DNA of 64,000 nucleotides from Verrucomicrobiota bacterium (GCA_023428915.1 JAEYWL010000010.1:3357-67356), one strand, 5' to 3'. Positions 45,571 to 56,282 are shown, counted from the first letter of the stretch. Notes: generated from the letters alone by a model not told the origin. Numbers and translations are program-made.

Positions 45571-48500
45571 ATGCAAGTCCGAAAAAGCCTCGATGCAACG
45601 AACTGGCAGCTTATTGAAGAGCCGCCAAAGTTGCCCCCAAAGATAAAACGTCCTTGTCCTTATTCAGAGCGCAAGGGTGATTTGGTCGCCCATCGTTTTA
45701 GAGGAGCAGGCGTCTACACAGCAGAAGATGAGCTGCAAGAGCAGCATTTAGCAAAATCCATTATTCCTTTAGAGGGTGAAGGTGTTTTCTATCTTACACG
45801 TCAATTGTTTGAAAAGCACACGAGTACTGTACAAGTACTGCTTTCGCAGCTTAAACTTGATAATGGGAACTGGCAAGGTGAAAAAGAAATAGTCTATACC
45901 TGGTCGCCTATTGGCTTGTTGCTGTATCTTTTATTTGAATTTCCTAATATTTCTATTTCTGTAAAAGGGTCTATCGTCCGCAAAGCTCAAGCTTGTAATA
46001 ATAACAATTGGTATAGATGTTTTGTAGATACTCTATTTCCTAATTTGTCTTTACAGCTGCCAAGCAGTGTCTTTACACGTGAAGCCTCTCTTAGTCCATT
46101 ATGTAAACATGACGTAGATGTGAGCATTAAAGCAGAAAGTGCTGCCGAGGAAGAAGCGCTGGCAACTTTATTTGTTCACTATATTGCAATGCGATGTTTT
46201 GATGAAAGCAATATTCCCATTGCGGTCTGCACCCAGCTGCCTAAGCAAGCGCCTTTATTTGAGAACTATAAACCAATAAGGCCAAATGGGCTCGTTTCAA
46301 AAAGTCACTGTACTTTGATATCAGTAGCGGGTGTGGACCAATATGGTCTTATTCGGAATATTGATGCCGTGATTAGCAGTTTTCTCGACCCTGGATTTTT
46401 AGCAACTCACGATAATGCGGCATTGCTTCTTGAACTCCTTGATTTGGCAAAAATGATCCTCCAAGAAAATCCTGGCTTAATGGTTTTGCCAAAACGTCAA
46501 AGATATGAAAAATTAGGCGAGCTATTAAGGAAAAAATTTCCAACAAGTTTACAGCTAATAGGGGAAGCTGGTTCCCCAAAACAGGCCGTTTGTTCACAAC
46601 TGACGCGTAGATATGCTATCGAAGAGTTGGAGAAGCGCAACGGCAAAGTCTGTTTTGAAATTTACTACTTAGCTACACGCGACCGCTTATGTGATACAGT
46701 CGGAGCGGGGGTCTATCTTTTAAAGAGGATATTTTTTGAAGCCCAAAAGAATAGAAAATTTGAGTATTACCTGGGATTATGCAGAACTGTAATGGGCAAT
46801 CATCACATTCATACGAGCCCTTTAAATTTCCTATGCTATGGGTTTACCTGTTGTGCTTATCTTGAAGAGGCTAGGGTAAACTGTGAAGTTGCTGTTGATG
46901 AAGCCTTTATTAATGATATTTGGGAAAACTTTTTTTCCTTTAGGATACTTTCTAAAGATTTAAGAGCATCTTTAATTACATATTTTGAGTCTGCCACCAA
47001 AAACAGCAGCAATTTAATGCAATTAATTTACAAAGCTAGTACAGAAGGTTTTTCCTTTAGGCGTTTGCTATTTCTGGTAAAATTACGGGGCTTATTTGAA
47101 TTGCTCAAAACGCAAAATGATTTGGGGGTAATGCTTACATTCCAGTGCGGCGACAATTGCATACAAATTCCTGTATGGGACGAAAAGGGGACTTGCACTT
47201 TGATCGTCCCATTTATTAAGGCCGCCGATTTTGAAAATTGGAGAGCAGAGGAGTTTGCTGCATTTCACACAGATCAGTTAAATATTTTAACTACAGTACC
47301 TGCTCAGTCTACTCCTGACTTTTCCAATCAACCCCAATTAGTCCGCAATGCAGAGAAAATGCGGCAATTTGATTGGGAATCACTTATTGAATCGCTTGAG
47401 CAAGTCAGCTTAATATCACCATTACCTATACAGATAGTGTGCAAAAAACTTCTTATTTATATTTTTGTACATCAACAAGAAAATCTCTCGATAAAGAAAT
47501 TTCTTTGCGCATTTCCAAGCCTATTTTTTGAAACTGATTTCTTGCCAGTATTAGAAAAGTTTTCTGCTGCAAAAAGCATTGCAAATTTAATCGATTTTTG
47601 TGATGCAAATAAAAAGATTACATCGAATAAAGCTCTTATATTTAATTACTTAAATTGGCTTTCAGGGCAAGAAACTGAAGTTGTTGCTGAAGTTATTTTA
47701 ACTATTTTTAAGAGGAATCATAATATTTTTTCTGCCAATAAACTAAAAGAGTACATTTGCAATGTTTGCAAAAAAAATAGTCTATTGGCACTAAAGTTGT
47801 TCTTGTGCATGCATGAGCAAAAAAAATTTAAACCGGCAATCGAACTAGAATTAGCGGAATATATTTTTGGGCAGAGAGAACGATTAGTTGAAAATGAATT
47901 GAATGAGTTCTATTGCTTACTGCTACCATTTCTTCATAAAAAATGCCATAGAGTGGATCCACAAAAATATAGTGAGGAAAATCGCTCAGTTAGAAGATTT
48001 ATTGAAACAATTTTTTCGGCGAGTTATTGCACGGCCCCTGATGAATTTCTCTATAGTTTAGCATGCGAGGGCTTAAGGCACGATTGTTTAACCTCTTTTT
48101 CGCGAGTTGCGGAATACCTAGATAGACGGCTAGAAAGATTGATTTCTCAGCAAGCAAGGCAATTATCAAATCTAATTCGCTGTTTACAATTAATTGTTAC
48201 ATACAAATTGGATCCTTTACCGCTTTTTAGAAGCAAATGGGAAAGAGTAAAAATGCAAGTCACTACTCTATTATTGCATACTTACTCAAAAGAAGAGGCT
48301 CAAAATATTTTAAACACGATTTTTTATGAGCCTGAAAAAGTTATCGAAGTCGATGAAAAGGACTTATTAGAATTATTTACAGCGAACAATTATGAAGGAA
48401 TTTACAGAATAGTAAATTTACAGAGATTTACTATTTTAGATGACAGTAGAAAACTTTATTGGCTTGAGACCTTTGCCCAGCTTCCTGTATGTAGTGGCAG

Positions 48501-50802
48501 TAAACAAATGCATTTTTGTATATTGCGCATCGCTTTAACACATTCCAATCCTAAATTTGCTTTATGCTATAAGTTGATTAGCGATCTTATCTCTTTTTCT
48601 ACGCTGGTTTTTGATTTGCATGAGCTTTGCGAGCTACTTGAACATCATAATACCAAAGTATTGTTTCGCGATTTTCCCAATGCTATTTCTCTGCTTAAAA
48701 TTCGATTGTTAAATAAATTACCAATTCAACATGAGCATTATTCGCTGCTGCTTGCACATTTAGTGAATGTTTGTTTCAATCTCAATGATTATAGAATTGA
48801 TATACAGACCAGATTGGAAATTGCTTATTTATTATTAGCAGCCAGAAAGCAGACTGCTTCGTTAAGGCAAAGCGAGGTACTCAGAAATGCTGTACTGGCA
48901 AACCATGAAAGTATAAGAAAAATTTTAGTTCTATCACAGGAGTATGAAGCCCTTCTGCAATATCAGGCATATTTGCAAATTGCTAAAATAGGATTTCCTG
49001 AAGACTGGCACATTTCAACTTTAAACATAGCAATAGACTTTTTAAATAAAGGACATTCCACAGATAATTTTCTCGAATCCCTGCATCAATACCTGGCAAG
49101 TGACCATCCCGTTATCAAAGAAAAAAAACTTGTGCAAGTTTATCAAGTTTTTGAGTTGCTAATTAGTCAAAAAAGCTCTGAAAAACATTGTTACTATTTT
49201 GAGTTGCTAATTAGTCAAAAAAAAAGCTCTGAAAGATATAGCTACTATATTGAAGAAATTGTAAATAGAATTGAAGAGCAGAATATAAAGGAAAAAAAAC
49301 AGCTACAGTTGCCAGACGAGTTGACATCAGCTATTTTTTCTTATTATTCCTCCTTGCTATTCAATGCAGTTCATGAATTTGAGACATGCTTAGCCCCGCT
49401 TTTTGCATTGCGTATAAAAAAAGTAGCTTCTGAAAAGAAACTACTAGCTGAGTGGATAAATTTGATTGAAAGAGCTCAAAAAAATCAACAATGGCATCTA
49501 TTATTGATTATTTATCTGGAGTTAAATAATTTTAGAGAGTTGAAGTTAAGCATAAAAGAAAAGAGTTCGATCCGCAAGGCATTCACCAAAATTCTTAAAG
49601 GTAAACCATCAGCACTGGAAATTTCTACTGTCCTGAAAGCATTACCGCAATTTATGGGTTATGTAAATAATTATTGGGCGCAGGTATTTCAATTAGTGGC
49701 CAGTCACCCTAGGGAGTTTGAAAATTTACTATCCCAATTATGGTTAACTTTGGAGTCTTTGGAGTCATCTAAAGAAAAAAAAATTGTATTTCGGGAAGCT
49801 TCGCAATTTTGCTGGATTACAGCGATTAAGCATTATAGAAGATCAAAACAAAATGGAATGAGCGATCCTCACGTGGTTAATTTTTTAACTGCGATATATA
49901 ACCCTGAAAAAGCATTCCATCATTTTTTTCCTGTAAATACACAACCTGGAGTGTTAAGTGAAGCGTACCATGTGCTAATTGAAAGAGCTATAAATTTGAC
50001 TTCAGGTTCTGCATTATTTGATGAAACTCTTATTAGCAAAATTTTAGAATTAAAGGCTAAATTCGATGATTTTTTTCAGACAGTGACGGGGAAAGAGATT
50101 AATCCCGCAATTATACAAAGAATAATAAAAAAATACCCTTCTTTTCTAATTCCGCAATCAGTTCTTACAAAGAAACTCATAGGTAAAAAGGTTAAGATTT
50201 GCGCTCTTCTTTTTTCAGCTTTAAAAAATAGAAATAAGGATAAAGCTTGTGAAATTGGGCAAGAGTTATTGGAATATCAAGCACTAATTCAAAAGTCCAA
50301 TTTGGAGACTATAAAACAATCTAGCGAGAACTTGTTCATAAAGTACTTTGTAGAATATTTGCAGTTATTAAACTCGGCAAGCGATGATGTCAGAAACAGG
50401 CATATGAAAATAATTCATTTTCCAATTTGCTTTGCTTTTTATGAAACGATGACTTTAAAAGTCCGTCTTAATCTGATTAGATGTTTTTTAGAGCTTTATA
50501 AAGATTCCAGCTCCGCAACTTTTCACATGGAAAGATTAATTGTTTTAGAAGCATGCAAGCATTTAGAATTAGTGCTGCAAGAATTTATCAAAAGGAAACC
50601 CGATCCAACGGAAGTAGGATTAGTCAAAAACATCCTTATTAAAATAACTAATATTTGCGAGGAGGATTATTATTTGGCCGGCCATAAATGGGTATATTCT
50701 ATATTAGATGGAAAATATTATACTGCTAAGTGCCATTTTCTTACTTATACTGAAATTTACAAAATGCAAAACTTAGCAATATCAGCTTGCCAAATCCAAT
50801 AA
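45571..50802 (+). CDS. Giant orphan protein (1743 aa), alpha-helical, AT-rich gene
   Basis: Uninterrupted 5.2-kb ORF. The Leu/Lys/Phe/Ile-rich helical composition carries no motif I recognise. The gene is visibly more AT-rich than the flanking housekeeping genes. Confidence 0.7.
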   Translation: MQVRKSLDATNWQLIEEPPKLPPKIKRPCPYSERKGDLVAHRFRGAGVYTAEDELQEQHLAKSIIPLEGEGVFYLTRQLFEKHTSTVQVLLSQLKLDNGNWQGEKEIVYTWSPIGLLLYLLFEFPNISISVKGSIVRKAQACNNNNWYRCFVDTLFPNLSLQLPSSVFTREASLSPLCKHDVDVSIKAESAAEEEALATLFVHYIAMRCFDESNIPIAVCTQLPKQAPLFENYKPIRPNGLVSKSHCTLISVAGVDQYGLIRNIDAVISSFLDPGFLATHDNAALLLELLDLAKMILQENPGLMVLPKRQRYEKLGELLRKKFPTSLQLIGEAGSPKQAVCSQLTRRYAIEELEKRNGKVCFEIYYLATRDRLCDTVGAGVYLLKRIFFEAQKNRKFEYYLGLCRTVMGNHHIHTSPLNFLCYGFTCCAYLEEARVNCEVAVDEAFINDIWENFFSFRILSKDLRASLITYFESATKNSSNLMQLIYKASTEGFSFRRLLFLVKLRGLFELLKTQNDLGVMLTFQCGDNCIQIPVWDEKGTCTLIVPFIKAADFENWRAEEFAAFHTDQLNILTTVPAQSTPDFSNQPQLVRNAEKMRQFDWESLIESLEQVSLISPLPIQIVCKKLLIYIFVHQQENLSIKKFLCAFPSLFFETDFLPVLEKFSAAKSIANLIDFCDANKKITSNKALIFNYLNWLSGQETEVVAEVILTIFKRNHNIFSANKLKEYICNVCKKNSLLALKLFLCMHEQKKFKPAIELELAEYIFGQRERLVENELNEFYCLLLPFLHKKCHRVDPQKYSEENRSVRRFIETIFSASYCTAPDEFLYSLACEGLRHDCLTSFSRVAEYLDRRLERLISQQARQLSNLIRCLQLIVTYKLDPLPLFRSKWERVKMQVTTLLLHTYSKEEAQNILNTIFYEPEKVIEVDEKDLLELFTANNYEGIYRIVNLQRFTILDDSRKLYWLETFAQLPVCSGSKQMHFCILRIALTHSNPKFALCYKLISDLISFSTLVFDLHELCELLEHHNTKVLFRDFPNAISLLKIRLLNKLPIQHEHYSLLLAHLVNVCFNLNDYRIDIQTRLEIAYLLLAARKQTASLRQSEVLRNAVLANHESIRKILVLSQEYEALLQYQAYLQIAKIGFPEDWHISTLNIAIDFLNKGHSTDNFLESLHQYLASDHPVIKEKKLVQVYQVFELLISQKSSEKHCYYFELLISQKKSSERYSYYIEEIVNRIEEQNIKEKKQLQLPDELTSAIFSYYSSLLFNAVHEFETCLAPLFALRIKKVASEKKLLAEWINLIERAQKNQQWHLLLIIYLELNNFRELKLSIKEKSSIRKAFTKILKGKPSALEISTVLKALPQFMGYVNNYWAQVFQLVASHPREFENLLSQLWLTLESLESSKEKKIVFREASQFCWITAIKHYRRSKQNGMSDPHVVNFLTAIYNPEKAFHHFFPVNTQPGVLSEAYHVLIERAINLTSGSALFDETLISKILELKAKFDDFFQTVTGKEINPAIIQRIIKKYPSFLIPQSVLTKKLIGKKVKICALLFSALKNRNKDKACEIGQELLEYQALIQKSNLETIKQSSENLFIKYFVEYLQLLNSASDDVRNRHMKIIHFPICFAFYETMTLKVRLNLIRCFLELYKDSSSATFHMERLIVLEACKHLELVLQEFIKRKPDPTEVGLVKNILIKITNICEEDYYLAGHKWVYSILDGKYYTAKCHFLTYTEIYKMQNLAISACQIQ
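49150..49248 (+). repeat. In-frame tandem duplication inside the giant ORF (48-nt and 51-nt units differing at a poly-A tract)
   Basis: TTTGAGTTGCTAATTAGTCAAAAAAGCTCTGAAA... occurs twice. It encodes FELLISQKSSEKHCYY / FELLISQKKSSERYSYY, with A6 in one unit and A9 in the other. Confidence 0.85.
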
Positions 50803-50842: not shown

Positions 50843-51190
50843 ATGAATGAGTTGCCAAAATGTGTAAATTGCGGTTCTGATTACACTTACCAAGATCTAG
50901 AATTGTATATATGTCCTGAATGCGGTCATGAGTGGCCGAAGGGCGCTGTAAAAGAAAGCCTTGAAAAAGAGCAAGTTGTAAAAGACGCCTATGGAAATAT
51001 ACTGCATGACGGCGATGACGTAACCATCATCAAGGATATTAAAGTAAAAGGGGCATCGTCAGTAATCAAGGTTGGCGTTAAAGTGAAAGGCATTCGTATA
51101 GTTGATGAAGTCAATGGGCATAATATAGAGGCTAAAGTCCCTGGCTTTGGTCTGATGATGCTCAAATCCGAGATCGTCAAAAAAACTTAA
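50843..51190 (+). CDS. yjdM: Zinc-ribbon protein YjdM/PhnA family
   Basis: 115 aa with the N-terminal CxxC...CxxC ribbon (CVNCGS..CPECGH). The C-terminal PhnA-type SH3-like block is VKDAYGNILHDGDDVTIIKDIKVKG. Confidence 0.85.
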   Translation: MNELPKCVNCGSDYTYQDLELYICPECGHEWPKGAVKESLEKEQVVKDAYGNILHDGDDVTIIKDIKVKGASSVIKVGVKVKGIRIVDEVNGHNIEAKVPGFGLMMLKSEIVKKT

Positions 51191-51224
51191 TCAGGTGATG
51201 ATATCCGAACAACAATCCATTGGC

Positions 51225-51290
51225 GCTTAGTCCATTAAGTCTATAAGGTCCCTGGCGTCCTTATCGTCCATTGTGTCCCTTTAAGCGCCA
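51225..51290. repeat. Third copy of the 9-bp-periodic repeat element, bounded by 9-bp inverted termini
   Basis: GCTTAGTCC ATTAAGTCT ATAAGGTCC CTGGCGTCC TTATCGTCC ATTGTGTCC matches unit 6616-6679. The termini are TGGCGCTTA and TAAGCGCCA. It lies in a convergent intergenic region. Confidence 0.8.
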
Positions 51291-51300
51291 AATTAATTCT

Positions 51301-52281
51301 TTAGTGTACGGAGGTTAACTCAATCCAATAAGCTGCCATTTCAGGAGAAAGGAAATTTGTGATTCCTGTGTAGTTTGGAAAGATATTATTGTACTCGGTA
51401 TCAATGAACGCAAATTTTCCTGTTTGCGTATAAGGGACATTGTCTGGTCGATAACTAGAACCGCCTACATAATTTACAATAGCAAATAACTCATCTAGAT
51501 GTTCACGTGTAATAAGTGTTTTCCAAGCATGTAAATTATCATCATAAGGTACTAATGGCACTTCTTCTACCAGCAAGATTTCATTCTTATTAGCTGCATT
51601 GGAAGTTTCTGCATCCGGCAATACATAAATCCATTTTTGCGGAGCTGAAAAATACTTAAAATTTCTAGCGGCAATAATCCGGCGTATTTTCTTCGAATTC
51701 TTTACACGTTGTGAAAACCATTGCCATGCCGGCTTGTTTTTGTAGTTGATCGTCCAACAGTCAAGATAGGCTTTTACTAAATAACCTGGCAAGCTGGGAT
51801 GCTTGCCAATTTGAATAAATTGTTCAGGTCTTGTTACAACAAATTGAAAACCTGCCTGTCTAAAAGTATCTTTGTTTTTTAATACCTGAAATGGCTGTGT
51901 AAAAATTTGATCAAGTGCAGGCTTGGCGGGATGATTTGCGGGCAGCAAGTAAGGGCGGATGGTTTTTCTTTCTTCCTTGGTAAGCATGCAAAGCCATTTG
52001 GCATGTTCAATATAAGGAAGGGCATCAGCCGGAAGTCCGATTTGAATAAAATTAGAGGCTTCTTCAAGACTGCAATAGAGTTCATCTTCCAGATCGCTTT
52101 CTTTTAAAATACTCTCTTGACTATGGAATTGTTCTAAAATGTTTGCAAGCGAGGTAGGAAAATCAACGTCTCCAGGATAAAGATTTTCTATTTCCTGAAT
52201 TAAAGTACGCTGTGTAATAAATGCGTGCAGTGAAAGTGTTGCGCACAAAAAACATGTAAGAAAAAATTGCATCATAAGCAC
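51301..52281 (-). CDS. Secreted hypothetical protein with a possible atypical kinase-like core
   Basis: 326 aa with a signal peptide. Candidate motifs are PGYLVKAY (beta3 Lys), ILLVEEV (hinge), YRPDNVPYT (catalytic-loop-like) and FAFIDTEY (DFG-equivalent). It is the last gene of the operon. Confidence 0.4.
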   Translation of the reverse strand: MLMMQFFLTCFLCATLSLHAFITQRTLIQEIENLYPGDVDFPTSLANILEQFHSQESILKESDLEDELYCSLEEASNFIQIGLPADALPYIEHAKWLCMLTKEERKTIRPYLLPANHPAKPALDQIFTQPFQVLKNKDTFRQAGFQFVVTRPEQFIQIGKHPSLPGYLVKAYLDCWTINYKNKPAWQWFSQRVKNSKKIRRIIAARNFKYFSAPQKWIYVLPDAETSNAANKNEILLVEEVPLVPYDDNLHAWKTLITREHLDELFAIVNYVGGSSYRPDNVPYTQTGKFAFIDTEYNNIFPNYTGITNFLSPEMAAYWIELTSVH

Positions 52282-52289
52282 CTAAATAT

Positions 52290-54125
52290 TTAATAAATGT
52301 ATTCTCCGGCAATATCTCTTTTACCGTAACCATCTAGCACATGAAATGTGCGAATTTTGTTCAAGGTAACAGGTGAAAGCTGGCCTAGTGGAATATACAC
52401 GATTTTCTTTCCATAACGGCGAGCAAAATTTTTTAAAAGCGTCCTTGGCGGCGAAGCAGCAACATAGACGATCAACGGTTTAACGGCATAATCAATGGCT
52501 GCTGCCAGCAGCACCTCGGCTTTATCTTTAAAAGCGCTATAATCAGGGTCTGACCAGACATCGAACATTCTACGCGGGGGATAGGACATCATAAACCCGC
52601 CATATTCGCAACGGCTGATCCCAGGCCCTATCACTTGGTTGGTTGCCGGAGTTGCATAAAAAGCCATGTCTGACTCTTGCTGGTGCTCCCCTAGCCAGGT
52701 AGCTTTCCACGAGTATTTGTTTTTTTCGGGGGAAATTTCCTCTTCCTTTTCTCCATGAAAAACAACCACGATAGAGCCTACTCCGCCGGGAGGTTTGCCG
52801 CGGGACTTCACATAGAGTTTATGCTCCGCCCAATGCCGAATAGTTTCACGAGTATCAAGCCCATCTTCCAAGCTGCTGGAAAAAGGGATTGTACGGGCAG
52901 ATTCTTCTGATAAAAGTTGCGTTCCTTTTTTTTGCAAGAATTTGCCGAAATTTTCAATAATCAAATCTTCTGGAGGATAAGAGCAAATTGCAAAAGGCCC
53001 CGGCGGCTTAAATTGCATGCCCGAGCGGTCCTTTCGCCTATGTCTAAAGAGGGGATCTTTCCGTCCTGGAGAGCGGAGATGAAATTTAATAAGTTTGCTA
53101 TTGCCCCAGATCTGTTCGCTTGAGACTTGCATTTCAGGAAGATTGTCGATGTTTTTTTTGTAGGGGTATTCTGTGGCCAATTCCCACGTTTCGTAGGCAT
53201 AGTTGTGGTCGACACAGCCTTTTGCAGCATTCAGTATCTTAAATAGGTCTGGCATTAAACGTCCGTGAAGCCAGGCGTAATTGCGCACAAACTTCATGAC
53301 ATTGCGATAGTTATATCCGGGAAAAGGATTGCCGGTCCGCTGGCGATAATTTTCGGCGGCGGCTTTATAAAGCTGCAATAACAATTGCTGCCTGTCAAGC
53401 AGGCGAGCCGCTTTTACCCCATCTTGCATTAAATCCTCGCGCCATTTTTCATAGTGCCGGCTAAACCAGCCTGGCTCCGCTAACACCTCCCGCATGGACA
53501 TGTCTGTAATGGTTTGCAGCGAAATTGAAAATTTAATGTCCGGTTGAAATTCAGGAAATGTTGTTTGCCCCATGAGATTCAGGACTCTTTGCAAGTGGAA
53601 CATGCCGCATACAAAGAAAACCTTATCGTAAGAGTAAGATAGAGCTTTTAATTGCTTGGCCATATACAGCTCGCGCAGCTCGTCTTCTTTACTGGCAGCC
53701 TCTTTTTTGCCAAGTTTTAAATAGGCGTTGTAATAAGCTTGTAAACCGATCTTAGTAATAGAATAAGAATCGGGATAGGCTTCGTAATGCTCTTTATAGC
53801 CGGCTACATCTAAATCAATGCAGAAGGCTGGAATTTTTCTTTCAAGGGCTGAGCGCAAAGCTTCAAAAGTTCCCTCTGAAGGTTCTGCAAGATAATAAGT
53901 ATTGCTGAAATCCTCAGCTTCTGCGGCCACTAAACTAATGTCCGGCAATCTAGAGGCGGCATGCAGCATTTGTAAATGCATAGTTTTGGGAAGCTCAACA
54001 GCCGCGCAGTCAGGTTTCAGCTCTTCAAAAGCAAGCTTTACCTGTGCCGCAAATTCCATGTTATAGTGCAAGATCGGCACGGCATATATATTGCCCCGCT
54101 GCACAAAAAAAGGTGTAGGTTTCAT
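52290..54125 (-). CDS. 611-aa protein of unknown function, N-terminus TraB/GumN/DUF5682-like
   Basis: The N-terminal pattern IYAVPILHYNMEFAAQVKLAFEELKPDCAAVELP resembles the start of TraB-family and DUF5682 proteins. No VWA MIDAS motif was seen. There is a 2-nt gap to the AAA+ gene. Confidence 0.45.
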   Translation of the reverse strand: MKPTPFFVQRGNIYAVPILHYNMEFAAQVKLAFEELKPDCAAVELPKTMHLQMLHAASRLPDISLVAAEAEDFSNTYYLAEPSEGTFEALRSALERKIPAFCIDLDVAGYKEHYEAYPDSYSITKIGLQAYYNAYLKLGKKEAASKEDELRELYMAKQLKALSYSYDKVFFVCGMFHLQRVLNLMGQTTFPEFQPDIKFSISLQTITDMSMREVLAEPGWFSRHYEKWREDLMQDGVKAARLLDRQQLLLQLYKAAAENYRQRTGNPFPGYNYRNVMKFVRNYAWLHGRLMPDLFKILNAAKGCVDHNYAYETWELATEYPYKKNIDNLPEMQVSSEQIWGNSKLIKFHLRSPGRKDPLFRHRRKDRSGMQFKPPGPFAICSYPPEDLIIENFGKFLQKKGTQLLSEESARTIPFSSSLEDGLDTRETIRHWAEHKLYVKSRGKPPGGVGSIVVVFHGEKEEEISPEKNKYSWKATWLGEHQQESDMAFYATPATNQVIGPGISRCEYGGFMMSYPPRRMFDVWSDPDYSAFKDKAEVLLAAAIDYAVKPLIVYVAASPPRTLLKNFARRYGKKIVYIPLGQLSPVTLNKIRTFHVLDGYGKRDIAGEYIY

Positions 54126-54127
54126 GG

Positions 54128-54979
54128 CTATGAAAAGGGGAGGTAGGCTAAGGCTTCATCGCCAAGGGTCATTACTATGGCTTGCCGTATCAATGATTCC
54201 TTGTCAGCTTTGCCGCCAAGGCTTTTTATACGTTTGGCTGCATAGCGGGCAATATTAATTCCATCCCTGATGGTGTAGCTTTCTTGGCTTGCGTGCGCGC
54301 GCTGTAAAAAGTCCACCACATAACTCATGATATGCTCTTCAATAAAGGGAAGGTTCTCCTTTAAAATTCTGCGCTCTTCATCGGCTTCTGGAAAATCCAA
54401 ATAGATTTGCGGCTGCAGACGGCTGTGAATATATTCTGGGATTTCAAAAGTAGAGGCGTCATCATTCATAGTAACGCAAATGCGAAAATCTTTGTGGGCA
54501 TGTACCTTCAAGCCTGCCGCAATCGATTCAATATACCGGCGGGTGTCCAGCAAGGGTGCCAATGAGGCCCAAGATTTTTCGCTCATTCTGTTGGCCTCAT
54601 CCAAAATACACACGCCTCCGCTAATCATTGCGGAAACCAATGCAGAGGCGACATAGCGGATGCCGCCGGCTTTATCCACTACGGGTGTAATCAATAAGTC
54701 TTCCGGGCGTGTATCCATCGTGCACTGGTAGATGTAAACCGGATGGTTGATTCTCTTGGCTGCAGCATAAGCCAGCGTAGTCTTGCCCACGCCTGGTTTG
54801 CCAATTAAGCGGGGATTCAAAGGGATGTCCTTTTCATCGACTACCATCCAGGCTGCTAACAATTGTTCCAAAACATCTTGCTGCCCGATCCATTCAAACT
54901 GGAACTCATCGGGAAAACCAAGAGCCAGCTCCACTCCGTCAATTACGACTCTCTTTTCTTGTCCATCCGAACTACTCAT
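54128..54979 (-). CDS. MoxR/CbbQ-like AAA+ ATPase (AAA_5-type)
   Basis: 283 aa with Walker A GKPGVGKTTLA and Walker B VCILDEANRM. It has the MoxR-like single AAA module architecture. Confidence 0.8.
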   Translation of the reverse strand: MSSSDGQEKRVVIDGVELALGFPDEFQFEWIGQQDVLEQLLAAWMVVDEKDIPLNPRLIGKPGVGKTTLAYAAAKRINHPVYIYQCTMDTRPEDLLITPVVDKAGGIRYVASALVSAMISGGVCILDEANRMSEKSWASLAPLLDTRRYIESIAAGLKVHAHKDFRICVTMNDDASTFEIPEYIHSRLQPQIYLDFPEADEERRILKENLPFIEEHIMSYVVDFLQRAHASQESYTIRDGINIARYAAKRIKSLGGKADKESLIRQAIVMTLGDEALAYLPFS

Positions 54980-54987
54980 GATCTGTC

Positions 54988-55755
54988 CTATTTTCTTGTT
55001 GCTTTATCCGAGCCATACAATAGAGAGGCATTGGCAATATTTTCCCGGGCATTAGGAAATGCTTCCTGAATCTCATCTAACAATTTATCGACTTGCCGCC
55101 GCATAGAATTCTGTCCTACAGGGCAGCGGCATGTGATGCGTGCAAAACCCTGCTGCCTGGCAAAGGTGCGAATGTCTGCTTCAGCAATATAAATCAAAGG
55201 ACGAATAATCGTCACCCCATAGTCGTGCATATGGATTTTCGGCAGATTGCCGGCAAATTCCCCCTTATGCAAAAGATTCATAAGCAAAGTCTGGGCATTA
55301 TCGTCCCTATGGTGCCCAAAAGCGATAATATTGGCGCCGCATTCTTTGGCTGCATCAAAAAGCAATCTGCGCCTTTCTCGGGAACAGCTGTAGCACTCCA
55401 GGGTTTCCAGTTTCTGCGCCGATTGCCGCTCGATGAAAGGCACATCCAAAGCTGTGCAAATCCCCTTTAGGTAATCCAAATTAACGCCGGCGCCGCAGGA
55501 AAACTCGCCGCTTACATGCACTGCGAATAACTTAAACGGGGGAAAGCCCCTGCCTGAAATGGCGTGTAAAAGAAATAAAAGCGCTAGACTGTCTTTACCG
55601 CCGCTTAAGGCTATGGCAACAGGGTTGTCATCTTGAATCATCCCAAAGTCAAATAGAGCCTTGCGGCAGGCGCTCTCTAAGCGCTTGCCAAGGCCAGACC
55701 ATGGCGGCCTGGCAATCGGCAGCCCGGCTTGTTCCGTATTTTCCATAATTTTCAA
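54988..55755 (-). CDS. ttcA: PP-loop ATPase, TtcA-like tRNA thiolation family
   Basis: 255 aa with PP-loop IALSGGKDSLALL. It has CYSCSRERRRL and FGHHRDDNAQTLLMNL as in TtcA, plus C-terminal CRCPVG cysteines. Confidence 0.65.
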   Translation of the reverse strand: MKIMENTEQAGLPIARPPWSGLGKRLESACRKALFDFGMIQDDNPVAIALSGGKDSLALLFLLHAISGRGFPPFKLFAVHVSGEFSCGAGVNLDYLKGICTALDVPFIERQSAQKLETLECYSCSRERRRLLFDAAKECGANIIAFGHHRDDNAQTLLMNLLHKGEFAGNLPKIHMHDYGVTIIRPLIYIAEADIRTFARQQGFARITCRCPVGQNSMRRQVDKLLDEIQEAFPNARENIANASLLYGSDKATRK

Positions 55756-55851
55756 CTCTGTAAATTAAATGCCTAATCAGTTTATAATCTAAGAGTAAGC
55801 ATGTCAAGAAGGCATAATCACAAATAATTCACATATATTACAGAGGTTCAC

Positions 55852-56127
55852 ATGTCAAATCAACCAGGACGTAATGATCCTTGCCCATGCGGCTCCGGAA
55901 AAAAATACAAAGCCTGCTGCTGGTCCAAGCAGCTTCCAAAAGCAAGAAAACCCCTGAATGCAAAATTATTAAGCTCGGGCGCCTCGGCATCTAATTTAAT
56001 GGGCCGTGTCTATGGCGGCTCCATGAATGCTCCTAAATTGCCTGAGCCTGAGCAGGCTGAGCAGCAAACACATGCTGAAATGCCTGAGAGCAGCTCTGTA
56101 GAAAGCAGTCAAGCTGAATCAAAATAA
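55852..56127 (+). CDS. SEC-C motif-containing small protein
   Basis: 91 aa. The N-terminal [18 protein letters not shown] is the SEC-C metal-binding motif. The tail is low-complexity. Confidence 0.7.
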
Positions 56128-56169
56128 AACCTGTCGAGGATTGTGCCAGAAGTTTAAATTACAATTTTG

Positions 56170-56199
56170 TTGTGCGAAATTAAAAGCTTCTGGTATAAA
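56170..56199 (+). promoter_or_regulatory. Candidate sigma70-type promoter for the tRNA pair
   Basis: TTGTGC - 18 nt - TGGTATAAA (extended -10) ends about 10 nt before tRNA-Thr. Confidence 0.35.
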
Positions 56200-56209
56200 T
56201 GTCCTTTCT

Positions 56210-56282
56210 GCTGACATAGCTCAATTGGTAGAGCACCCGACTTGTAATCGGGCGGTTGTGGGTTCAATTCCTACTGTCAGCA
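56210..56282 (+). tRNA. tRNA-Thr (anticodon UGU)
   Basis: Manual cloverleaf fold: acceptor GCTGACA/TGTCAGC, D arm GCTC/GAGC, anticodon stem CCCGA/TCGGG with loop CTTGTAA, and T arm GTGGG-TTCAATT-CCTAC. It is 73 nt with no encoded CCA. Confidence 0.9.

Follow-up and report, generated by a model that had tools for sequence, protein, structure and literature searches.

Which of four closely packed genes on one strand form a functional unit, and what does that unit do? The question is raised by positions 51301-55755 of a 64,000-nucleotide (nt) stretch of DNA recorded under Verrucomicrobiota (GCA_023428915.1, JAEYWL010000010.1:3357-67356; the whole stretch is called the window here), in which a MoxR-class AAA+ ATPase and a 611-amino-acid (aa) protein are encoded between a TtcA-family PP-loop ATPase and a 326-aa protein. 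This four-gene stretch belongs to a chlamydial genome; homologue names and locus titles assign the window to an environmental member of Chlamydiota. MoxR-class AAA+ ATPases are abundant and few of them are understood, the working model being a ring motor that acts with an adaptor carrying a von Willebrand factor A (VWA) domain with its metal ion-dependent adhesion site (MIDAS). Comparison of related loci showed that only the AAA+ ATPase and the 611-aa protein, referred to as D611, are conserved together across phyla, and the functional unit consists of two genes, not four. The genes and the parts of D611 are as follows.

54128-54979, minus strand: MoxR-class AAA+ ATPase, 283 aa, a single AAA_5 module (Pfam AAA_5); first core gene of the pair
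52290-54125, minus strand: D611, the 611-aa partner protein, starting 2 nt past the ATPase stop; second core gene of the pair
53511-54125, minus strand: D611 residues 1-205, predicted TraB/PrgY/Tiki-fold domain (Foldseek, hhalign against PrgY)
53001-53510, minus strand: D611 residues 206-375, helical middle region (AlphaFold secondary structure), common with DUF5682 up to about residue 300
52293-53000, minus strand: D611 residues 376-611, family-specific alpha/beta C-terminal domain (conservation; no family match)
54988-55755, minus strand: TtcA-family PP-loop ATPase, 255 aa (Pfam ATP_bind_3; TtcA as best NCBIfam match)
51301-52281, minus strand: 326-aa protein with a hydrophobic N-terminus, from a chlamydia-restricted paralogous family

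The open reading frame (ORF) call and the junction sequences confirmed four minus-strand ORFs with intergenic gaps of 8, 2 and 8 nt, as given in a first-pass annotation made from the sequence alone. All four are real genes, and each has many homologues. Two start codons were probably called slightly too far upstream, those of the 326-aa gene and the PP-loop gene. The 326-aa protein has 324 aa in the public gene call, which gives a gap of 14 nt. The PP-loop ORF begins with TTG, and because its homologues are 246-248 aa long, the ATG at 55746 is the likelier start.

Conservation of the gene pair

To cover the family, 85 loci encoding relatives of D611 were retrieved, 44 of them chlamydial and 41 non-chlamydial (Geobacteraceae, Desulfuromonadaceae, Desulfobacterales, Acidobacteriota and others), the genome loci being the best 80 of at least 595. 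These loci were searched with the window proteins, and all their ORFs were clustered. The ATPase gene was found directly upstream of the D611 homologue in 67 of the 76 loci with enough upstream sequence (67-68 across all 85), which corresponds to 37/38 chlamydial and 30/38 non-chlamydial loci. The median gap between the two genes is -4 nt in Chlamydiota and +3 nt in the non-chlamydial loci. The pair is distributed over Chlamydiota, Geobacterales/Desulfuromonadales, Desulfobacterales and Acidobacteriota. Identity of the ATPase to that of the window is 74-83% in chlamydial loci, except for 70% in L041, and 62-68% in other phyla; for D611, the values are 47-64% and 39-43%, respectively.

The other two genes do not follow this distribution. 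The PP-loop gene adjoins the pair in 30 of the 44 chlamydial loci and in none of the 41 loci of other phyla, and the 326-aa gene adjoins the module in 0 of the 85. ORF clustering of the non-chlamydial loci gave no third gene conserved beside the pair, and the neighbours there vary by locus and are of the housekeeping type (sigma-54 regulator, SelB, ferrochelatase, ABC transporter, Tex). The first-pass annotation had read the quartet as one unit and had named neighbourhood conservation as the check. Run over the 85 loci, this check found the four genes not to be co-conserved, which is the outcome under which, in its own terms, the quartet reading falls. Thus, tight spacing in one genome was no predictor of co-conservation, and a plausible operon inference is corrected.

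Domains of D611 and of the ATPase

D611 represents a large family, with no fewer than 4605 homologues, 1335 cluster representatives (50% identity) and 595 loci in species genomes. An exhaustive profile search yielded the 1335 cluster representatives, as well as an alignment of 85 sequences reaching down to 26% identity (A2). The AlphaFold2 model obtained with this alignment had a predicted local distance difference test score (pLDDT) of 91.8 and a predicted template modelling score (pTM) of 0.71, superseding a first run with 19 close homologues, for which pLDDT was 51. D611 is a cytoplasmic protein in three parts, a TIKI-fold domain, a helical region and a family-specific C-terminal domain.

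For the N-terminal part, the only significant Foldseek match against viral models was a TraB family protein (A0A481YWY5, E 6.2e-5, probability 1.0, 228 columns). Nothing was found in the PDB at E < 1e-3; the top match there, with a probability of 0.93, was a chain of Tetrahymena complex IV (7w5z_E/8b6h_DQ). The paper describing the Tetrahymena complex IV structure lists a TraB-family protein among the subunits, although it was not verified whether the matched chain is that subunit. In profile comparison with PrgY of pCF10, a bona fide TraB/GumN protein, hhalign gave 92.3% and E 5.7e-7 over residues 12-194, pairing PILH with GTAH, VELP with LEWD, RELYMA with ERDQYLA and GMFH with GQAH. In the window protein, the corresponding residues are H20 (PILH), E44 (VELP), R151 (RELYMA) and H177 (GMFH), and this full H-E-R-H set is kept in 63 of the 85 family representatives. 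Active TIKI enzymes are defined by two His, two Glu and a conserved basic residue, Arg (PMC6254334). Candidates for the second Glu are E24 (52/85), E88 (76/85) and E152 (65/85), none of which could be placed with confidence. Both Foldseek and the PrgY alignment point to the parallel beta-sheet core with flanking helices that characterizes the TIKI fold. Residues 1 to about 200 are thus predicted, from the model and the profile alignment, to be a TraB/PrgY/Tiki-fold domain with the H-E-R-H residues intact, which bears out the TraB-like N-terminus first noticed by eye.

The relation to DUF5682 is partial. DUF5682 (PF18934, YehM-like) is a model of about 700 positions in which membership implies a full-length match, as for E. 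coli YehM (331 bits, positions 1-695). The window protein reaches 27 bits, the cutoff being 26 bits, and its best stretch covers only residues 141-179; for 5 of the 19 close homologues and for most of the distant ones, there was no reportable match. When the family profile was compared with an alignment of 21 DUF5682 members, hhalign returned 95.3% and E 2.2e-8, but only for columns 16-300 against 5-339, while the C-terminal domain scored 0.14% against the DUF5682 C-terminus. By profile comparison, residues ~16-300 are distantly homologous to DUF5682, and full-length membership was rejected. The label "DUF5682-like" given in the first-pass annotation therefore stands for the N-terminal ~300 residues, and D611 as a whole is no proper member of that family.

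The model shows a helical region at residues 206-375, with a low-confidence loop at 360-370, followed by the C-terminal domain. The latter is better conserved than the rest of D611: its median identity to distant members is 44%, compared with 29% for the N-terminal and 26% for the middle part. It contains the motifs PPED, DGxDxRET, GEHxxESD, EYGGF and FHVL. G422, E480, H595 and R603 are invariant, the last three in 85/85 sequences, and S382, E386, D387, E391, T428 and E484 are nearly so. No Pfam match was found for residues ~376-611 even at E <= 10, and PDB searches with three profiles (chlamydial, 85-member and C-terminal-only) gave nothing meaningful. E480, H595 and R603 stay invariant even where TIKI residues have been lost, which suggests that the domain carries the indispensable function, and as the most constrained element of the protein it may be a docking site or a second active site.

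Two assignments were tried for this domain and rejected. A degenerate CoxE-type VWA domain was considered, since a single-sequence hhalign comparison with YehP reached 10%, placing "DGIDxRETIRNWH..IYV" on the segment that precedes the VWA strand; with an alignment of six VWA_CoxE members, the value was 0.6%. Weak Pfam "Mor" matches at the extreme C-terminus of 8 of the 19 close homologues were regarded as chance, as the motif is short and stops before any helix-turn-helix. Neither Pfam scans nor hhalign against YehP and VWA_CoxE detected a VWA domain or a MIDAS in D611, and no VWA gene was conserved near the pair among the ORF clusters of the 85 loci. The lack of a visible MIDAS motif and the pairing of a MoxR-type ATPase with an unusual, non-VWA partner, both pointed out at the outset, are thereby supported.

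The 283-aa ATPase matches Pfam AAA_5 at 1.6e-21 (AAA_3 at 29.8 bits), in agreement with the initial MoxR-like assignment. Both Walker motifs are intact, A being GKPGVGKT (residue 60) and B being VCILDE (residue 123). The nearest solved relatives in the PDB are the AAA modules of midasin, CbbQ (5c3c, 46.7 bits) and NorQ, and the best PHROG is a CobS-like family (phage CobS-like ATPases). CbbQ, NorQ, midasin and the CobS-like ATPases each work with a dedicated partner. Orthology with YehL was ruled out, since the BLASTP similarity is limited to the surroundings of the P-loop.

Proposed function of the pair

We propose, with a probability of roughly 55%, that the ATPase and D611 together make up a machine that uses ATP to remodel or process a client, with a TIKI-fold protein serving where a VWA adaptor is usual. 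The ATPase would form the usual hexameric ring and remodel a cytoplasmic client protein. D611 would fill the role played by the VWA adaptor in NorQ/NorD, CbbQ/CbbO and YehL/YehP, and the part that docks on the ring would probably be its highly conserved C-terminal domain. The TIKI domain would then bring a hydrolytic activity, as a protease or esterase, or a substrate-binding activity to the client, and the outcome would be an ATP-dependent machine for maturation or processing.

Several observations weigh against this proposal. One or more TIKI residues are missing in 22 of the 85 representatives while the C-terminal invariants remain; because catalytic residues were lost there and the C-terminal invariants persist, TIKI catalysis is not universally essential. 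By analogy with PMT or ChaN, the TIKI domain may be a scaffold or binding module. The ATPase gene does not adjoin the D611 homologue in 9 of the 76 loci. In addition, the PP-loop gene lies on the same strand as the ATPase gene at a median gap of 17 nt in 28 chlamydial loci, and a functional link with the pair inside Chlamydiota is possible. As a separate observation, the 22 sequences with incomplete TIKI residues include two fairly close relatives (~48% identity), P0242 and P0243.

The loss of TIKI residues bears on an alternative that is possible, if rather unlikely, namely that the pair is a non-catalytic adaptor and cofactor-insertion chaperone like NorQ/NorD, CbbQ/CbbO or CoxD/E. Here, the TIKI domain would only bind, the C-terminal domain would hold a metal or the client through its conserved acidic and His residues, and the ATPase would open the client for cofactor loading or reactivation. 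The nearest characterized relatives of the ATPase, CbbQ, NorQ and the CobS-like proteins, are indeed cofactor or activation chaperones, and a quarter of the family has eroded TIKI residues with E480, H595 and R603 invariant. Non-enzymatic TIKI-fold proteins also exist, PMT being one without the catalytic motif (PMC6254334). However, no VWA/MIDAS domain is detectable in D611, no candidate client gene is conserved beside the pair outside Chlamydiota, and three quarters of the family keep the full H-E-R-H set, suggesting selection for catalysis.

The proposed processing machine was compared with known systems. NorQ/NorD, CbbQ/CbbO and CobS/CobT share with the pair a single-module AAA_5 ATPase of ~270-290 aa encoded beside a partner of ~600 aa or more and, as far as can be inferred for the pair, the logic of a ring motor with a dedicated adaptor. 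They differ in that the partner in the pair has a TIKI-fold domain instead of VWA/MIDAS, and in that the pair lacks a linked client gene (cNOR, Rubisco, cobaltochelatase).

The YehL-YehM-YehP-YehQ/DUF5682 loci, as in E. coli, resemble the pair in having an AAA_5-type ATPase directly upstream of a large protein with homology over the first ~300 residues; the E. coli yehLMPQ system is uncharacterized, as is the pair. They differ in that the window ATPase is no YehL orthologue and the C-terminal ~300 residues of D611 are unrelated (0.14%). Seven canonical DUF5682 loci were examined (E. coli yehLMPQ, Iodobacter, Streptomyces, Agrobacterium, Deinococcus, Bacillus and Methylosinus), and all seven contain a YehL-like ATPase, DUF5682 and a VWA gene, plus SWIM, DUF4132 or DUF5691; none of the VWA_CoxE, SWIM, DUF4132 and DUF5691 genes is conserved in the 85 loci of the D611 family. 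In some Geobacteraceae loci (L059, L062, L077, L078), other genes are inserted between the ATPase and D611 genes. The insert of L059 (2460-5960) encodes 1166 aa, including a SWIM-like zinc finger and an SNF2 helicase region, a curious find given that canonical DUF5682 systems come with SWIM proteins.

With the TraB/PrgY/GumN and Tiki superfamily (the Tiki Wnt protease, RRSP, erythromycin esterases, ChaN), D611 shares the fold and the positions of the H-E-R-H motif; the known members differ in being stand-alone, membrane-anchored or embedded in toxins. The literature search found no report in which a TraB/Tiki member has an AAA+ ATPase as its partner or carries the D611 C-terminal domain, and no paper on the D611 family, DUF5682, YehM function or a TraB-MoxR link.

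Flanking genes, mobile elements and meaning of the pair

The PP-loop protein matches Pfam ATP_bind_3 (5.6e-19), and its best NCBIfam match is TtcA (NF007972) at 166.2 bits, under the 272-bit equivalog cutoff. It carries SGGKDS at residue 51, CYSC at 121 and CRC at 209, the Cys positions aligning with those of TtuA; its PDB relatives are TtuA, NcsA and TilS, and the Neochlamydia orthologue is named "TtcA family protein" by PGAP. The TtcA-like PP-loop assignment of the first-pass annotation is supported at this level. The protein resembles the [4Fe-4S] thiolases TtcA and TtuA/NcsA in its SGGKDS motif and its CxxC plus third Cys, and departs from TtcA in its score (166 vs. 272 bits) and in its linkage to the pair, found only in Chlamydiota. 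From its motifs, it is a putative [4Fe-4S] tRNA thiolase of the TtcA family and no proven TtcA.

Its position upstream of the ATPase raises the alternative of a chlamydial three-gene unit, in which the pair would mature, repair or regulate this TtcA-like thiolase, or act on the same tRNA substrate. The same-strand arrangement with a median gap of 17 nt and the adjacency in 30/44 loci are in line with it, as are the Cys residues and PP-loop motif of Fe-S tRNA thiolases and the fact that MoxR-class systems frequently load metal centres (PMC9976466). Nevertheless, this alternative is improbable. No PP-loop gene was found within ~6 kb of the pair in the 41 non-chlamydial loci, and the pair persists without PP-loop adjacency in the chlamydial loci L001, L009, L011, L025 and L026. 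Moreover, the whole chlamydial neighbourhood is syntenic on both strands, with a divergent SEC-C gene (placed alike in at least 22 chlamydial loci) and, downstream, a coiled-coil gene on the opposite strand, surE, yitT and queG; the annotated Neochlamydia S13 locus has this same SEC-C/surE/yitT/queG arrangement. Because the flanking genes SEC-C, SurE, YitT and QueG are conserved too, the PP-loop adjacency is not above background synteny. The PP-loop gene most likely encodes an ordinary enzyme of tRNA 2-thiolation and, in chlamydiae, is probably on one transcript with the pair. Chlamydiaceae, to judge by the gene order of C. trachomatis, may have ttcA beside surE and lack the pair.

Three chlamydial loci have a transposase-associated gene where the PP-loop gene would be, and the pair is intact in them. 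This gene, of ~740 aa and with DDE_Tnp_1_assoc, lies on the opposite strand directly upstream of the ATPase (L001, 4638-6860; L011, 2664-4955; L026, 2172-4325). Two further features of the window lie upstream of the PP-loop gene.

55779-55807, minus strand: sigma-70-like promoter candidate, TTGACA, 17-nt spacer, TAAACT (consensus scan)
55852-56127, plus strand: small SEC-C-motif zinc-binding protein (Pfam SEC-C 1.2e-10), divergent from the PP-loop gene

The promoter candidate has 10/12 consensus matches and is the best site of the region, although the region as a whole has no more such sites than shuffled sequence; as a consensus match, it is only suggestive.

At the other end of the locus, the 326-aa gene was inserted later, and in this lineage only, at the 3' end of the transcription unit. 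Its adjacency in 0/85 loci and its GC content of 37.6%, compared with 45-49% for the other three genes, place it outside the module. The protein has 317 homologues, all of them chlamydial where the source is named, which form a paralogous family with variable and, in the window protein, hydrophobic N-termini and a conserved C-terminal region of ~215 residues (LVK, RPDN, IDTE). No Pfam, NCBIfam or PDB match was obtained with the single sequence, nor in the PDB with a 24-member profile. The invariant K170, D280-N281 and D294-x-E296 are like VxK, HxDxxxxN and DFG-type motifs by eye only, so the kinase-like fold first proposed for this protein is not backed by Pfam or by the PDB profiles.

The 326-aa gene and yjdM converge on an intergenic region (window 51190-51300) that contains a 10-nt inverted repeat (TTGGCGCTTA ... 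TAAGCGCCAA) with a spacer of ~52 nt, which may be a terminator or another structured element. A plus-strand ORF of 1743 aa at 45571-50802 has a GC content of 35%, low like that of the nearby 326-aa gene, and may encode one of the lineage-specific giant proteins that environmental chlamydiae commonly have.

These data also bear on the original four-gene proposal, a modification, maturation or conflict system that includes a secreted kinase-like protein. It drew on the tight one-strand spacing in the window; canonical DUF5682 loci, which resemble multi-gene MoxR-VWA systems and are sometimes found on plasmids near restriction-modification genes, and a probable integrated phage-like element nearby could be taken to favour it as well. 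Beyond the deviant GC content, the missing adjacency and the unsupported kinase fold of the 326-aa gene, PADLOC gave no match for the PP-loop, D611 and 326-aa proteins and only weak, generic P-loop matches for the ATPase (best, TRIP13 at 20.8 bits). No phage match was found, and the sole match in the plasmid collection was a chlamydial replicon with normal chromosomal housekeeping synteny; a mobile-element origin was rejected on these grounds. The high identity of the chlamydial ATPases and their stable position are unlike variable, island-borne defence systems. With its surroundings being stable and housekeeping in nature, the conflict-system idea finds no support, and the four-gene system is very unlikely. 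Two viral-classed IMG/VR contigs, L089 and L090, encode D611 relatives of 42% and 33% identity, respectively, and probably represent host DNA within or next to prophage calls.

Further to the right, the plus strand of the window carries tRNA-Thr(TGT) at 56209-56283 and tRNA-Tyr(GTA) at 56295-56379. An ORF on the minus strand (56264-57835), which encodes a large serine recombinase (Resolvase, Recombinase and Zn_ribbon_recom), overruns the tRNAs with its 3' end, and the tRNA locus looks like an integration site. The region to the right of the recombinase (58102-62980) holds a primase/helicase-like gene at 58715-60454 (CHC2 zinc ribbon, Toprim, AAA_25 and helix-turn-helix) and a gp3-like small terminase at 62549-62980. 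These genes probably belong to an integrated phage-like element extending past the window end; no direct repeat of at least 16 nt was found in 56150-64000.

The pair thus brings to light a well-conserved family that couples a MoxR-type motor with a TraB/Tiki-fold protein and a C-terminal domain absent from databases. We tentatively suggest that it may constitute a new class of MoxR-type machine, a two-component system for ATP-dependent protein processing in which a TIKI-fold hydrolase with a new C-terminal domain stands in for the VWA adaptor. Such a system would have been kept by environmental chlamydiae and exchanged between them and Desulfuromonadota, Desulfobacterota and Acidobacteriota. 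The pair is experimentally accessible, since it is carried by cultivable hosts such as Geomonas, Geotalea and Pelotalea. If it is indeed an ATP-driven processing machine, the repertoire of both superfamilies would be widened, and the TraB/Tiki fold would have its first energy-dependent partner.

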